A stretch of 64,000 bases of DNA, from the NCBI GenBank assembly GCA_019058445.1, contig JAHPZA010000010.1:576001-640000 (forward strand), read 5' to 3'. Made by a program: the position numbers and the translations under genes. This document shows, piece after piece, positions 33,002 to 49,249 of this stretch. This stretch comes from Promethearchaeota archaeon. GTDB taxonomy: Archaea; Asgardarchaeota; Lokiarchaeia; Sigyniarchaeales; SOKP01. The notes beneath the pieces were generated by a model that was not told the origin of the DNA, made no database searches, and saw only the letters and a list, made by a program, of their open reading frames with translations. Position 1 is the first letter of the stretch. Every line of letters begins with the position of its first letter.

Positions 33002-35851
33002 ATGAAATCTAATTTAAAAATAAAAATTACGATCCTTTTAGGATTTTTACTCTTATTATCGAGCAATATTGTGAATTATAATGCACAATTAAATAACAGA
33101 AATGTTAGCGAAACCAATAATAATGATTATACAAAAACTCCAAATTCAGCAGGATATTGGGAACTTTCTTACATTCACGTCGATGATAATTGGACTGCTG
33201 CTGCCGGTGAGGAATGGTGTACCTTTGAAAATGGGGTTTATCTTATTGAAAATATTACTCTACAAGGATCAGGAATGGGGATAAGTGTTTTAATTGAGAA
33301 TACAGATGAGTCTTTTATAATTAGGAATTGTAGTATTAAACAATATTCAATCGGAATTCAACTTGAAAATGCAAGTAACGGTTTAATAACAAACTGTAAC
33401 ATTTCTAATATAGATAATGTTGCGATTTTATTGTCAGATTCCGATAATAACACTATTTCTTACAATTTAATTGATGATGTAAATGGTGTAGATGGTATTG
33501 ATGGTGGAGCAGGAGCTAATGGATCTGAAGGTACAGATATATTTGGATTGTTTATTACGAATTGTAGTAAAATAAAGATTGAAAAGAATAATTTTACAAA
33601 TATAATTGGCGGAAATGGAGGTATGGGTGGTTCAGGTATAAGTGGAAATCCCGGTCAAGCAGGTGGAAAAGGGGGTGATGGCGGAAATGCATACGGTATT
33701 TATATTAGAGAAGCAAATGGAATTAATTTAACTTCCAATAAAGTGTCATATATCCAAGGTGGAAGTGGAGGAATTGGTGGATTAGGAGGAAGTGGCCTAA
33801 CAGGGTCAGATGGAAGTGATGGTGGTCTTGGTGAAAATGGTGAAAATGGTGGAGATGGTGGCAATGGGGGTAATGGAGGAGATAGTGGAAATGGAGGTTG
33901 GGCAATAGGTATTTATTATGAAAATGGATCGAATTTGTTTAATGAAAAAAATCAGATCCATTACATTAAAAGTGGAGGAACTGGAGCAGGAGGAAATGGA
34001 GGCATAGGAGGAGATGGTGGTCTTGGTGGGGATGGTGGTGATAGTAATCCCCCAACATCATACAGCGGAATTGGAGGTAGTGGAGGTAACGGAGGAGACG
34101 GTGGAATTGGAGGAGCTGCTGGGGAAGGGGGAAAGTCAATCGGTATCTTCTACAATGATTCATTAATAATTTTGAATGTCGAAAATAATATTTCCAATAT
34201 CGAAGGGGGAAATGGAGGAAATGGAGGACTTGGTGGTAATGGAGGTGATGGAGGACTTGGTGGTAATGGAGGAAATGGTGCGGATTTAACTTTTATGGAA
34301 GGAGGAGATGGTGGAATTGGAGGTTCCGGTGGAGAAGGTGGTAAAGGAGGAAATGGAGGAATAGGAGGTGCAGCATTCGGGATGTATTATAGAAATGTTT
34401 CAGATATAACAAATCAAAAAAATAATATTTCAGCTATAATAAGTGGTCACGGAGGAACTGGAGGAAGTGGAGGAAGTGGAATGTATGGGGGTGATGGCGG
34501 ATTAGGGGGAAATGGAGGAGACAACATTATGACAAATGCGGGAGATGGTGGTGATGGAGGAAATGGAGGAATAGGAGGAAATAGTGGTTTTGGTGGAAAT
34601 GGTGCTGAAGGGGGTTTAGTATCAGGATTATTTTTTGAAAATGCTTCATTTATAGTTAATCAAGAAAATAAGATTACTGAAATATATTGTGGTAACGGTG
34701 GAGCGGGTGGCCAAGGTAGTTTGGCATTTGATGGTGGTGATGGAGGAAATGGAGGTGACGGAGGAACCTCAACCTATGCTATGGATGGTTATGATGGGAA
34801 TGGCGGAAATGGGGGAAATGGAGGAAATGGTGGGAATGGAGGAAATGGAGTTAATGGAAATAATGCTTATGGTATTTATCTTTTTAATATTTCAGATATT
34901 TCAAATATTCAAAATAATATTTCAATAATTCAAGGAGGCCAAGCTGGGAATGGCGGAAATGGGGGAAATGGAGGAGATGGCGGAAATGGGGGAAATGGAT
35001 TTACTCAAGGAGATGATGGGAACGGGGGAAATGGAGGAGATGGAGGAGATGGAGAAAACGGGGGAGAAGCCATTGGTATGTTTTTCAAAGAGATATTTTA
35101 TGGATCAAACCAGATAAATCAAATATCAAGGATTTTTGAAGGGAATTCTGGGAGTGGGGGATTGCAAGGTAACCCAGGATCAGGAGAGTCCCAAGGAACT
35201 GCGGGAACCAATGGCATAGCAGGTATAGATGGGATATCTTATGGATTCTTTTTTATCAATTCGCAGTCTATTATCTCCATAATAAATGAAGTATTTTGTG
35301 ATAGCAATTATGATGACGGAATGAAAAATCTATGGGATAATGGAACTATTGGAAACTATTGGAGCTCATATGTAGGAATTGATATGGCCCCGAAAGATGG
35401 AATTGGAGACTCAAATTACATACTATTAGGAGCCTTTGCAAATGATACAAAACCACTCCTGTTTACCTTATTCGATGATGAAGATGGGGATGGATTAGTT
35501 AATTATGAAGAATATATATTAGGTTTAGATGGTTATGCTACCAATGTAACCAATTCTGACTCAGATTACGATGAACTTTCAGATTATTGGGAGTGGCAGA
35601 ACTCCACAAATCCCTGGAACGAAGACACTGATGGAGATGGATACTCTGATAAATGGGAGCTCGATAATGGTCATGATCCATTAGACCCAAACGATCCTCC
35701 AAAGATTATTTCCTCAGGTGGAGGAGGTGGTGGAGGAGGGAGCAGCAGTAATGATAGTAGCGAAACTACAATCCCCGGATATGATATTTTCATTTTGCTT
35801 GGGATGATCAGCGTAATTATAGTTATAATCATTAAAAAGCGATTTAAATAA
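33002..35851 (+). CDS. Secreted/surface protein: beta-helix (NosD/CASH-like) with PGRS-like Gly-rich inserts, Ca-binding DxDxDG repeats and C-terminal IPGY-TM sorting tail
   Basis: Signal-like N-terminus; GI.L..S.N..I..N.I repeats; (GGxGGx)n blocks; [23 protein letters not shown]; IPGY + TM + KKRFK. Confidence 0.82.
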
Positions 35852-37479: not shown

Positions 37480-37737
37480 TTAGCCTATTTCTACATCCAT
37501 TTTCTTACGCTCTTCAAGGAGATCGTCAACTACAGATGGATCGGCTAAGGTTGTGACATTTCCAATATCAGTACCAGATGCGATAGCTTTTAAAATTCGA
37601 CGCATAATTTTACCACTTCTGGTTTTTGGAAGGGCATCTGCAAATTGAACGACATCTGGTTGAAAGACTGGTCCGATCTCTTGTCGAAAATGCATTTTAA
37701 TGTCGTGTTTCAAATCTACAAATTTTTCAATTCTCAT
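37480..37737 (-). pseudogene. acs: Duplicated 3'-terminal fragment of acetyl-CoA synthetase
   Basis: Last ~65 aa (EIGPVFQPD...[14 protein letters not shown]...MDVEIG*) identical to the C-terminus of the 45051 gene; no upstream acs sequence. Confidence 0.85.
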
Positions 37738-37831
37738 AAATATTATTATAACTCTGTTTATTTTGTTTTAATCCATAATTTTTTATAACCCTAACTCAAT
37801 ATATTTAAATTAAAGATTATTAAGCAAAACT

Positions 37832-45050: not shown

Positions 45051-47185
45051 TTAGCCTATTTCAACATCCATCTTCTTACGCTCTTCAAGGAGATCGTCAA
45101 CTACAGATGGATCGGCTAAGGTTGTGACATTTCCAATATCAGTTCCAGATGCGATAGCTTTTAAAATTCGACGCATGATTTTACCGCTTCTGGTTTTTGG
45201 GAGAGCATCGGCAAATTGAACGACATCAGGTTGAAATACTGGTCCTATTTCTTTTCGAACATGATTTTTAATATCTCTCTTCAACTCAACTGATTTATCA
45301 ACGCCTTGCATTAAAGTAACAAAACTCCAAATGGCTTGACCCTTAATTTTGTGGGGAAAAGGAGCTACTGCAGCTTCAGCTACCTTCGGATGACTCACTA
45401 TTGCTGATTCGACTTCCATGGTTCCAATTCGGTGGCCTGAAACCTTAATCACATCATCTAATCTGCCTAAAATCCAATAATAACCATCTTCGTCTCGACG
45501 TGCTCCATCTCCAGTATAGTAACATCCCGGATACCTTTCGAGATAAGTCGATTTGAATCGTTCGGTGTCACCCCACACATCTCTTAACATACCAGGCCAT
45601 GGTTGAGCCATACAAAAATATCCTCCTTCATGGGCTTCAGTTACCTCGTCTCCTTCTAAATCAAAAATTATCGGTTTGATTCCTAAGAATGGTAAGCAAC
45701 ATGAACCTGGTTTTGTGGGTGTAGCGGTCGCTATCGGCGTCATTATAAAGCCCCCCGTTTCTGTTAGCTAATGAGTGCGAATTGCAATCATCTTTTGCCA
45801 GTATGTATCAACGATGGGGCATTTTTCCTTTCCTACAATTCTGTGATACCACGTCCATGCCTCAGGGTTTTTCCCAAACTACGCATAAGTTGCATAATTT
45901 ATTGGTTCCCCTACAGTACCTAAGACGCGGATAGAGCTGAGATCATGTTTATTCACAGGCTCATCACCATATCGCATTAACGCTCTTATTGCCGTCGGAG
46001 CTGTATAAAACTGTGTAACCTTGTGTCGCTCAACAATATCCCAAAAGCGGTCCACATTTCCCCCATATGAAGAAATTTCAATTTTTCCTAAAGAATTAGG
46101 ATTTTTAATTTGTATGACTGGGTATGTAGGCACGCTTTCAAACATAAGTGTTGTAGCGCCATTTGCTAATGGTCCATATACAATATAACTATGTCCGGTA
46201 ATCCAACCTATATTTCAGCTAAGCTAAGCGAGTTGCTTTAACTTTCTGCTGTACAATACCAGACATCGCCATCCTTATAATTAAACACCACTCTATGTGT
46301 AAATGAAGTGTAAAGGATATAACCTGCTGTGGTATGTTTCACCCCTTTAGGTTTACCAGTAGTTCCGCTTGTATATAGGATGAATAAGGTGTCTTCAGAA
46401 TCCATTTCTTCACAATCACAATCCTCATTCATACCATCAATGAAATCATGATACCAGATATCCTTGTTGGTGCTTGGAACTTCATTTCCCGTACGCTTTA
46501 CTATTATAACATGCTCTATGGTAGGTACGTCATCGATAATTTGAGCGACATCTGCCATTTTTGGATAGGTTTTTCCCGCTCTAAAGGTCTCATCGCTAGT
46601 AAACAACAATCTCGAATCAGAATCCTCAATCCTATCTTTTACTGCTTCTTTTGAAAATCCGCCAAATACAATAGAATGAATTATTCCAAGTCGAGCGCAG
46701 GCTAACATAATAATTGCCAATTCAGGCAACATAGGGAGCCAAATGGTGACCCTATCTCCTTTTTTGAGCCCAAATTTTTTCATGCCGTTGGCAACTTTAC
46801 ACACTTCTTTTTTTAGCTCGCTAAATGTGAATTTTCTCACTTCTCCGGGTTCATCAGCCTCCCAGATTAGAGCGGTATGGTCGCCTTTCCCTTTTTTGAT
46901 ATGGCGATCGATACAATTATAGCATACGTTTAATTTTCCGCCAACAAACCATTTTCCGGGAAATAAGTCCGTTTTTTCCCAAACTTTATCGTAAGGTTTG
47001 AACCAGTCTAAAGATTTAGCTTGCTCGCCCCAAAACCCCTCCATATCATCAATACTTTGCTGCCACAGTTTTTTATATTCTTCGAAAGACATCCCGGTCT
47101 TTGCATAATCAGGATTTAAATTAACCGGATTGAAAACACGTGTTTCTGTAAGAATCGATTCCATTTTTTTATCTTCTTCTGACAT
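45051..47185 (-). CDS. acs: Acetyl-CoA synthetase (AMP-forming), 5 exons / 4 putative BHB introns; exons 46246-47185, 46118-46213, 45901-46057, 45794-45870, 45051-45763; spliced product 660 aa
   Basis: [68 protein letters not shown]. Exon sum is 1983 nt (661 codons) with no internal stops after splicing. Confidence 0.9.
45764..45793 (-). other. acs intron 4, 30 nt, BHB-type, contains in-frame UAG
   Basis: mRNA: CU GGCA AA|A GAUGA...UCAUU AGCU AA|C AG; removal gives UGG CAA ACA GAA (WQTETGG). Confidence 0.85.
45871..45900 (-). other. acs intron 3, 30 nt, BHB-type, contains in-frame UAG
   Basis: mRNA: ACCA AU|A AAUUAUGCA-ACUUA-UGCGUAGUU UGGG AA|A; removal gives GEPINPEAW. Confidence 0.85.
46058..46117 (-). 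other. acs intron 2, 60 nt, relaxed BHB-type, in-frame with no stop
   Basis: mRNA: ACCC AG|U CAUA...UAUG GGGG AA|A UGUGG; removal gives CCA GAU GUG GAC CGC (YPDVDRFW). Confidence 0.75.
46214..46245 (-). other. acs intron 1, 32 nt, BHB-type
   Basis: mRNA: UGUA CAGC AG|A ...hairpin... GCUG AA|A UAUA; removal gives GCA GAU AUA GGU UGG (ADIGW). Confidence 0.85.
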
Positions 47186-47341: not shown

Positions 47342-49249
47342 ATGGAAAGAATTGATTTATTAGATAAAGACTGGAGAGAGAAATGGAAAAATAAGGAAAT
47401 AACACCCAAAGAGGCAATAGGGAAGATTATTCCTGGAAATCGGGTATTTATTGATACTGGGTGTAGTGAACCGCAGGCATTAACAGATGAATTAATCAAA
47501 CAATCTGAAAAATTGATAGATACTGAGTTAATTCACTTTCTCACAATTTATCCTCAAAAATATTTCAAAGATAAGGCAGAAGATTTGTTTAGGCATAATG
47601 CGTTTTTTATAGGGAAAGCTCTCAGAGAGGAAATAAATAAAGGACAAGCAGATTATACACCTATAATAGCCAGTGAAATTCCTTCATTATTTCTTTCAGG
47701 TCGTAAATATTGTGATGTTGCCTTAATTCAAGTAACTCCCCCGGATCGATATGGTTTTTGCTCATTTGGAGTTAATGTTGATGTTGCTAAGCCAATTGCC
47801 CAATCAGCGTACATTACTATTGCCGAGATAAATCCCCAAATGCCCAGAACATTGGGAAATAGCTTCATCCACATGAAAGAAATTGATCATTTTGTGTATA
47901 ACGACACACCTCTCATAGAATTCCAGTTTAAGGAAAAGAATGAGATTATTGAGAGAATAGGAAAAAATGTAGCAGGTATCATTCAAAATAAATCAACAAT
48001 CCATATTGGTAATGGATATATTCCGAATGCTTGTTTAAATTACTTATTTGAAAAAAGAGATCTTGGAATGCACTCTCATTTTATAACTGATAATATCATA
48101 CATTTAATAGAAAACACTGTTTTAACATGTAGGAAAAAGAACTTCCATCCTGAAAAGATTATTACTAGCTACGCGTTAGGAACAAAAAAGCTATTTGATT
48201 TTATCAATAATAATCCTTACATTGAGTTTTATCCAACAGATTACATCTGCAATCCCCGATATATCGCAATGAATAAAAACATGGTTTCAATAAATCAAGC
48301 ATTACAAATCGATTTAACAGGCCAAGTAAATACTTCAACAAAAGGATACAAATTTCATACTGGAATTGGAGATACTGTGGATTTTATGAGAGGGGCAGCG
48401 CTTTCTAAGGGTGGAAAGCCAATAATTGTTTTACCTTCAACAAGAAAAGAGGGAACGGAATCAACCATAGTTCCCCATTTAGACGAGGGAGCGGGAATAA
48501 TTCTTTCTCGAGCAGATATTCACTATGTTGTAACCGAATGGGGAGTAGCATATCTTCATGGAAGGACAATTCGAGAAAGAGCCTTAGAATTAATATCTAT
48601 TGCCCATCCTGATTTTAGACAGTCTTTATTAGATCAAGCGAAAATATTGAACTACATTTACTCTGATCAATTATTACCCTGCGATGAGGAAGGAAATATT
48701 TGTATTTATCCAAAACACTATGAGACCTATTTTGTGACTAGAGCTGAAGAAAAAGTTATTGTACGCCCGGTAAGGACAACTGACGAACCTCTCTTGAAAA
48801 AATTGTATTATTCTTTAGATGAAAGAGATAGATATTTGAGGTTCTTTGAGGTGAAAAAGGAATTTACACATTCAAAAACACAACATGAGGTTAATATTGA
48901 TTATGAGAATATCTTTTCAATTGGAGCTTTTGTAGGAGATATTACAAATCAGGAAATGGTGGGAAACGCATCTTATTACTATAATCCCCGAAATAATATG
49001 GCAGAATACAGCTTTTTAGTTCGAGAAGATTATAGAGGTAAAGGAGTGGGCTCTTTTCTCTATCACCACTTAATCATCATAGCAAAAGAAAGGGGAATAA
49101 AAGGATTTTATGGAACTATTCACATCCAAAATAAACAGACGGTACAGATCATAAGGAAAGGAGGGTACACAAAAATTACACCTCCAGAAGCAGGAGAAAA
49201 AGAATTATTTTATGAAGTTTTTTTTGATAAAGACAATTCAAATGAATAA
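47342..49249 (+). CDS. Acetyl-CoA hydrolase/CoA-transferase fused to a C-terminal GNAT N-acetyltransferase
   Basis: DVALIQV.PPD..G.CS.G, EIN..MPRT.G, ID.TGQ, G.GD..DF.RGA..S.GG, VVTEWG.A.L.G; GNAT: YLRFF, AEYSFLV..DYRGKGVG. Confidence 0.9.
   Translation: MERIDLLDKDWREKWKNKEITPKEAIGKIIPGNRVFIDTGCSEPQALTDELIKQSEKLIDTELIHFLTIYPQKYFKDKAEDLFRHNAFFIGKALREEINKGQADYTPIIASEIPSLFLSGRKYCDVALIQVTPPDRYGFCSFGVNVDVAKPIAQSAYITIAEINPQMPRTLGNSFIHMKEIDHFVYNDTPLIEFQFKEKNEIIERIGKNVAGIIQNKSTIHIGNGYIPNACLNYLFEKRDLGMHSHFITDNIIHLIENTVLTCRKKNFHPEKIITSYALGTKKLFDFINNNPYIEFYPTDYICNPRYIAMNKNMVSINQALQIDLTGQVNTSTKGYKFHTGIGDTVDFMRGAALSKGGKPIIVLPSTRKEGTESTIVPHLDEGAGIILSRADIHYVVTEWGVAYLHGRTIRERALELISIAHPDFRQSLLDQAKILNYIYSDQLLPCDEEGNICIYPKHYETYFVTRAEEKVIVRPVRTTDEPLLKKLYYSLDERDRYLRFFEVKKEFTHSKTQHEVNIDYENIFSIGAFVGDITNQEMVGNASYYYNPRNNMAEYSFLVREDYRGKGVGSFLYHHLIIIAKERGIKGFYGTIHIQNKQTVQIIRKGGYTKITPPEAGEKELFYEVFFDKDNSNE

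Follow-up and report, generated by a model that had tools for sequence, protein, structure and literature searches.

The gene for AMP-forming acetyl-CoA synthetase (acs) in a 64,000-nucleotide stretch of the genome of a Promethearchaeota archaeon, an Asgard of the Lokiarchaeia type (contig JAHPZA010000010.1, positions 576,001 to 640,000 of the forward strand, hereafter the window) is interrupted by four short inserts. The fourth of them, 30 nt long and placed in the adenylate-binding motif of the enzyme, is very probably a spliced intron in a protein gene. We are led to this reading by its predicted fold, which is that of tRNA introns, and by the compensating mutations found in relatives. More specifically, we consider it highly likely that nucleotides 45793 to 45764 of the minus strand form one of four bulge-helix-bulge (BHB) introns in the acs pre-mRNA, which would be cut by EndA and joined by RtcB. 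The initial annotation had proposed a tRNA-type intron at this place, and the analysis of the sequence supports it.

An acs gene with four inserts and the geometry of the probable intron 4

Read on the minus strand from 47185 to 45051, the acs frame falls into stop-to-stop pieces of 316, 111, 36 and 238 residues. The pieces carry the Pfam domains ACAS_N, AMP-binding and AMP-binding_C in the correct order and, together with the WQTETGG motif and the lysine motif PKTRSGK, identify an AMP-forming acetyl-CoA synthetase. Against the AcsA model TIGR02188, the interrupted gene scored as two separate pieces, with 369 and 501 bits for a cut-off of 725, compared to 900-965 bits for intact orthologues. 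When aligned with orthologues of the same genus and family, it showed four clean insertions and no other lesion. Taking all four out left 1983 nt encoding 660 residues with zero internal stops, and restored the motifs CTADIGW, YPDVDRFW, GEPINPEAW and WQTETGG. The exon that follows intron 4 aligns with Salmonella Acs from Thr416 to residue 647, PKTRSGK included. This places intron 4 after the Gln codon of WQTETGG, in phase 1 of the Thr416 codon that follows, and hence within the adenylate-binding motif.

Around intron 4, the minus-strand RNA reads ...UAC UGG CAA A / AGAUGAUUGC AAUUC GCACUCAUU AGCU AA / CA GAA ACG GGG, with slashes at the predicted cuts. Written with helix strands in square brackets and bulges in parentheses, its layout is ...ACU[GGCA](AA/A)[GAUGAUUGC]AAUUC[GCACUCAUU][AGCU](AA/C)AG..., that is, a BHB arrangement. 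Every structural element of the initial annotation was recovered. The 30-nt insert is present at 45764-45793, with the announced in-frame UAG at 45770-45768, and the GGCA/AGCU helix with one A-A mismatch was found as G-U, G-C, C-G and A.A. The bulges AAA and AAC, both present, are 3 nt long and lie on opposite strands, and cuts after their second bases yield the correct product: removal of 45793..45764 gives W-Q-T-E-T-G-G, so that Q-T-E is restored as claimed. The two announced stems, GAUGA/UCAUU and UGC/GCA, make up a single 9-bp hairpin with one U.C mismatch and a 5-nt loop. This hairpin flanks the 4-bp central helix, of which 3 of the 4 pairs form in the window and all 4 in the copy of locus L019 (see below). 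On the exon side, two pairs (U-A and C-G) form a short outer helix. With at least one flanking helix the motif is HBh'-like.

Shuffling the insert reached the same number of pairs at the fixed register in 3 of 20000 cases, and in about 5 of 10000 when the three registers giving the same product were allowed. The hairpin was also present in the minimum-energy fold of all five lineages that carry the insert. A CUGG/UUAG register, mentioned by the initial annotation as an alternative with the same spliced product, does give that product in the window. With the insert of contig L114 it would replace the invariant Thr by Ser, and the L019 sequence does not pair in it, so only the GGCA/AGCU register fits all five lineages. 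Other types of intervening sequence were considered and set aside: the insert is 30 nt long and contains a stop, and neither the ribozyme of a group I or group II intron nor the protein-splicing domain of an intein was found. An Rfam search of the window returned no match. Coordinates are collected in Table 1.

Table 1. Positions of acs, its introns, the parts of intron 4 and related features (window positions unless a genome or locus handle is given; slashes mark cut positions of the motif)
Feature	Position	Strand	Description
acs (AMP-forming acetyl-CoA synthetase)	45051..47185	-	five exons and four inserts; 1983 nt / 660 aa once inserts are removed
Intron 1	46214..46245	-	32 nt, frameshifting, UAA; [CAGC](AG/A)...[GCUG](AA/A)
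Intron 2	46058..46117	-	60 nt, in frame, no stop; [ACCC](AG/U)...[GGGG](AA/A)
Intron 3	45871..45900	-	30 nt, GEPI/NPEAW; [ACCA](AU/A)[8-9 bp hairpin][UGGG](AA/A)
Intron 4	45764..45793	-	30 nt, phase 1 of Thr codon in WQTETGG; in-frame UAG 45770-45768
Central helix H, exon strand GGCA	45796..45799	-	partners AGCU 45769-45766: G-U, G-C, C-G, A.A
Central helix H', intron strand AGCU	45766..45769	-	read from sequence, five-lineage pairing and shuffles
5' bulge AA/A	45793..45795	-	predicted cut 45794/45793; geometry read from sequence
Intron helix h'	45770..45792	-	arms 45792-45784 and 45778-45770, loop AAUUC 45783-45779
3' bulge AA/C	45763..45765	-	predicted cut 45764/45763; junction UGGCAAA/CAGAAACG, giving Q-T-E
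Outer exon helix h, 3' strand AG	45761..45762	-	partner CU 45801-45800; 2 bp only
Same-site insert, congener G003	L016:2181-2210		30 nt
Same-site insert, congener G006	L018:2184-2213		30 nt
Same-site insert, congener G005	L019:2708-2737		30 nt
Same-site insert, metagenome contig	L114:1532-1561		30 nt
tRNA-Lys(UUU) gene	G000:C1:131025-131127	+	28-nt D-loop BHB intron 131041-131068
Insert in other AMP-binding (acyl-CoA synthetase) gene	G000:C6:862879-862908 (L005:2404-2433)	-	30 nt, in-frame UAA
Insert in EF-2 paralogue	G000:C10:684116-684145	-	30 nt, in-frame UAG; 44 kb beyond the window
Second Acs-like paralogue with in-frame TAA	G001:C9:18462-20330; G003:C40:246-2066; G005:C1:82943-84802; G006:C74:8898-10748

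Same-site inserts, covariation and history

The nearest relatives of the window's gene are found in metagenome-assembled genomes (MAGs) labelled Promethearchaeota. Inserts of 30 nt occupy the site of intron 4 in three congeners and in one metagenome contig, while the insert is absent from the 19 intron-less orthologues of the alignment, including those of G002 (L012) and G009 (L014) in the same genus. These two sisters lack it precisely. The inserts diverge at up to half of their positions, their in-frame translations are unrelated, and the one of L114 has no stop. Pairing is nevertheless kept: across the five lineages, 89% of the cells are paired, compared to 27-51% when the 3' partners are slid. 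In the hairpin, 5 of the 9 pairs are altered on both sides (A-U/G-C, A-U/C-G, U-A/A-U and C-G/U-A), which was equalled by 8 of 500 shuffles, and the covariation score is 0.44, versus 0.24 in shuffles. Pairs 1 to 3 of the central helix are kept in the five lineages, and the fourth is A-U in L019. The exon helix is paired in 100% of the cells (C-G or U-G, and U-A). Finally, the Thr codon is ACA in all five carriers, versus 5 of 23 intron-less genes, and the last base of ACA pairs in the exon helix; these counts are suggestive only, because the lineages are related.

These comparisons bear on the possibility that the insert stays in the mRNA, and that the ribosome bypasses it as in T4 gene 60 or the mitochondrial byp elements, or reads through the stop and makes a protein that tolerates 10 more residues. 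A short element with a hairpin and a stop would suit such a mechanism, as would the L114 insert, which is in frame and stop-free. Bypass, however, calls for take-off and landing codons that give Q-T, and no matching ones are present: the codon after CAA is AAG, and the one before ACA is CUA. Nor does bypass or read-through explain intron 1, whose 32 nt put the gene out of frame. Moreover, what is conserved is the RNA pairs, exon bases included, and not the insert peptides, and the residues added by read-through would sit between Gln415 and Thr416 of the adenylate site. We regard retention of the insert in the mRNA, in either form, as highly unlikely.

Carriers of intron 4 are scattered among intron-less lineages in a maximum-likelihood tree of the spliced acs genes. 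The window's gene groups with that of intron-less G002, with G003 outside them, and G006 groups with intron-less G009 (support 100/99), with G005 outside. The well-supported branches require at least 3 changes. As the introns resemble each other within each group of the tree, the simplest reading is that intron 4 was inherited, and then precisely lost in some lineages.

Could acs be a decaying pseudogene, and the inserts random lesions? Three inserts with stops and one frameshift are what decay might leave, and no unspliced piece alone reaches the TIGR02188 cut-off. Selection on the exons argues otherwise. Between the window's acs and the G002 gene (L012), the ratio of nonsynonymous to synonymous substitution rates (dN/dS) is 0.0175, which indicates strong purifying selection. 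With G003 as outgroup, the codon changes amount to 7 nonsynonymous and 112 synonymous on the window's branch, much as on the branch of the intact, intron-less sister (9 and 82). This dN/dS and an open frame of 660 residues mean that acs is no pseudogene. In addition, random lesions would not be expected to share one geometry, as all four inserts do, to come without any further lesion, or to persist at one site through five lineages while acquiring compensatory changes. Decay of the gene is accordingly very improbable.

The variation in presence among orthologues of the genus might also point to removal of the insert at the DNA level, or to an artefact of assembly or of a mixed population. In four sediment metagenome DNA runs, contigs carry intron 4 and the intron-less joint was seen in none. 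One contig of the source run, 28 kb long, covers the region without differences, and a 260-nt contig from a second sample bridges the intron. Its presence in DNA contigs contradicts both an assembly artefact and removal at the DNA level; diverged copies in independent MAGs and in a metagenome contig speak in the same sense. This explanation appears extremely improbable to us.

Splicing machinery and a tRNA control

RtcB is encoded in the window's genome (PF01139 match at C1:114713-116020, 574 bits). For EndA, the sole homologue in the window's assembly, which is 92.6% complete, lies at G000:C9:770343-770864 (L029:1219-1827). A catalytic EndA alpha paralogue was found in all nine congeners searched, including the intron 4 carriers G003, G005 and G006. 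Two EndA paralogues are present in eight of them, and G002 (71% complete) has the alpha type only. The Tyr/His/Lys triad is intact in the alpha paralogue of the five congeners examined (G002, G003, G005, G006 and G009), and the EndA of G003 finds its best match in the alpha subunit of Aeropyrum pernix, through a crenarchaeal-type loop with Lys (GINKPR versus VEKPR). Asgard archaea are reported to have an (alpha-beta)2 EndA, with an L1 loop permitting relaxed motifs (PMC5829648), and recognition of relaxed motifs outside tRNA is reported to be a property of the heterotetrameric enzyme (PMC2738675).

The tRNA genes of this organism provided a positive control. In the 4.6 Mb of the assembly, ARAGORN reported 5 uninterrupted tRNA genes, and 23 calls, some of them doubtful, when introns in the anticodon loop were allowed. 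So few uninterrupted tRNA genes imply heavy splicing in this organism, most of its tRNA genes being interrupted at other positions. This count agrees with the report that Asgard tRNA genes are heavily interrupted (10.64898/2026.10.13.758758). In the tRNA-Lys(UUU) gene, the intron has the layout [CGCA](GA/A)[8-bp stem, loop AAUUC][UGCG](UA/A), and cutting after the second base of each bulge turns the interrupted gene into a perfect 75-nt tRNA-Lys(UUU). ARAGORN misfolded the unspliced gene, and returned a perfect cloverleaf once the intron was removed. The hairpin apex GCAAUUCGC is identical in this intron and in acs intron 4.

Several observations weigh against splicing of intron 4 by EndA, and are gathered here. 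The folding z-scores of the single sequences are modest (-0.8 to -2.1 in the five lineages) and discriminate weakly. The window's motif has 3 of the 4 central pairs and an exon helix of 2 bp, and under the strict rule of the 2026 preprint (10.64898/2026.10.13.758758) it classes as relaxed, while the L019 copy is canonical. According to the same preprint, chance often produces the relaxed class, at many boundaries, when the motif is considered by itself; the case for intron 4 leans on the covariation, the hairpin and the frame that is restored. The covariation in turn was measured on five related sequences, which are few and not independent. Lastly, the EndA homologue on C9 appears to be of the structural beta type, as the catalytic Tyr and His of the Methanocaldococcus jannaschii enzyme are replaced by Phe and Ser, and no catalytic alpha was found in the window's assembly by Pfam, TIGRFAM or tblastn searches. 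A tblastx search with the flanks of the alpha gene found no counterpart of its 3.4-kb neighbourhood in this assembly either. The missing gene is probably an assembly gap, in the ~7% left unassembled.

The same absence of a catalytic EndA gene from the assembly is what would favour excision by an enzyme other than EndA and RtcB, or self-cleavage of the RNA. Against another enzyme stand the geometry, which is exactly that of EndA substrates, the restoration of tRNA-Lys by the same rule, and the alpha paralogue of the nine congeners. As for self-cleavage, 30 nt is far below the size of group I or group II ribozymes, and Rfam found nothing in the window. Either possibility has, in our view, only a slim chance of being correct.

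Cleavage by EndA and ligation by RtcB are what we infer from the structure, its conservation and covariation, the selection on the exons and the machinery of the lineage. The events would proceed as follows. In the acs transcript, the terminal GGCA of the exon would pair with AGCU near the 3' end of the intron. The 9-bp intron hairpin would stack on one side of this helix and the 2-bp exon helix on the other, so that each strand is left with one 3-nt bulge. In both bulges the heterotetrameric (alpha-beta)2 EndA would cleave behind the second base; RtcB would then join the exons into UGGCAAA/CAGAAACG, with an intact WQTETGG adenylate-binding motif, and would probably circularise the excised intron. 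Translation of the unspliced mRNA would stop at the UAG, with loss of the last 238 residues and of the catalytic Lys motif PKTRSGK; the output of enzyme would therefore depend on splicing.

Other inserts, known systems and neighbouring genes

All four acs inserts conform to one geometry. The central helix of intron 1 has its 4 pairs, and 2 of 20000 shuffles matched its pairing; for intron 2, the pairing was equalled by 31 of 20000. Among the aligned orthologues, introns 1 and 2 were found in the window's genome only. Intron 3 also occurs in L019 and L114; in both of them the inner central pair has become G-C (A-U in the window), and the hairpins, though different, are paired at 9 of 9 positions. 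Introns 1, 3 and 4 share GCAAYUCGC-like apices and UUAGCU..AA tails, and are more alike than shuffles (1, 10 and 81 of 5000), which ignore the hairpin constraint. Their likeness may reflect a common origin, or merely a shared structural constraint.

Inserts of the same kind interrupt further genes of this genome. In another AMP-binding gene, on C6, the insert lies between GWTQILI and PNPRD, with the layout [AUAU](UA/A)...[GUAU](AA/A) and 4 of 4 central pairs. In an EF-2 paralogue, it lies between QMTD and SDDEEQERGITI, as [ACAG](AU/A), a stem paired at 9 of 9 positions, and [CUGU](AG/U), again with 4 of 4 central pairs. Since a second, uninterrupted EF-2 paralogue exists (C9:663619-665790), the argument that an essential single-copy gene is interrupted was dropped. 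In four members of the genus, but not in other genera, a second Acs-like paralogue contains a single in-frame TAA; this may be another conserved intron.

One may ask whether the acs inserts are members of a spreading family of BHB micro-introns, moving between tRNA and protein genes in Promethearchaeota. The hints are the likeness of introns 1, 3 and 4, the GCAAUUCGC apex shared with tRNA-Lys, and losses in sister lineages that look precise. We hold this to be unlikely, though its chance is not negligible. Across the genome, the apex motif shows no expansion: there are 18 copies of GCAAYTCGC, of which 2 lie in long hairpins. If such a family did exist, the closest prokaryotic relatives of eukaryotes would have multi-intron protein genes spliced without a spliceosome. 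An ab initio census of the genome, combining BHB geometry and joining of open reading frames, found no excess over slid-register controls at three filter settings (about 8200, 1270 and 630 matches in every cell, by setting). It was swamped by the AT-rich background and by gene boundaries, and multi-intron genes fail its length filter on open reading frames, so the census says nothing on rarity.

Mechanistically, acs intron 4 is the same kind of element as the cbf5 intron of Crenarchaeota and the tRNA introns of Asgard archaea. Like acs, the crenarchaeal cbf5 pre-mRNA carries a short BHB-type intron in its coding frame, often with a relaxed motif, in a lineage that has the heterotetrameric EndA and whose members have gained and lost the intron patchily (Watanabe et al. 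2002; Yokobori et al. 2009, PMC2738675). Unlike cbf5, which is an RNA-modification gene, acs is metabolic, belongs to Promethearchaeota and has four introns, and further genes are interrupted as well. Splicing has been demonstrated experimentally for cbf5, whereas we infer it for acs. We did not retain intron 4 as a cbf5-type homologue, as its host gene is acs and not cbf5 of Desulfurococcales or Sulfolobales; the two would work alike without being homologous. The Asgard tRNA introns have the same motif, size class and presumed enzyme, but their host RNA is a tRNA and not an mRNA (10.64898/2026.10.13.758758; PMC5829648). In Haloferax volcanii, the BHB intron of HVO_1309 is likewise removed from an mRNA by the tRNA splicing endonuclease, but it lies in the 5' untranslated leader and not in a reading frame, in a euryarchaeal host with an enzyme of strict specificity (PMC7714728). 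Reported BHB introns in archaeal coding regions are limited to cbf5, with this one in a 5' untranslated region in addition (PMC7714728). Our literature search, with many papers of subscription journals outside its scope, found no paper on BHB introns in Asgard protein genes.

In eukaryotes, HAC1 and XBP1 mRNA splicing also removes a very short intron (26 nt in XBP1) from a coding frame, at two structured sites, with joining by RtcB and a change in the protein. There the nuclease is IRE1 and not Sen/EndA, the sites are stem-loops and not BHB motifs, and the reaction is a regulated stress switch.

Four introns in one metabolic gene, variable among close relatives, would mean that the lineage nearest to eukaryotes can apply tRNA-type splicing to mRNAs on a wide scale. 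They make it testable how a cell with no nucleus avoids translating unspliced mRNA, how such introns are gained and precisely lost, and whether intron retention gates enzyme output. There is also a practical consequence: gene callers split or truncate such genes, and so metabolic reconstructions from Asgard MAGs wrongly score them as broken.

A comparison of the whole window with the DNA of five congeners found synteny confined to acs and its neighbour. This neighbour, divergent from acs (47342-49246, plus strand), encodes a 635-residue fusion of acetyl-CoA hydrolase/transferase domains with a GNAT acetyltransferase, and is syntenic with acs in congeners; it is a possible partner in acetate metabolism or in acetylation of Acs. 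On the other side, 7.5 kb downstream of the acs 3' end (37513-37746, minus strand), a separate fragment corresponds to about the last 80 positions of the AcsA model and to Pfam AMP-binding_C. It may be the relic of an insertion into acs. Further away, at 33002-35851 on the plus strand, an open reading frame of 949 residues is rich in repeats of 9 and 27 nt, with units like AATGGAGGA that encode Asn-Gly-Gly runs; these repeats account for a local rise in guanine-plus-cytosine (GC) content (0.39) and for a GC skew of 0.455.

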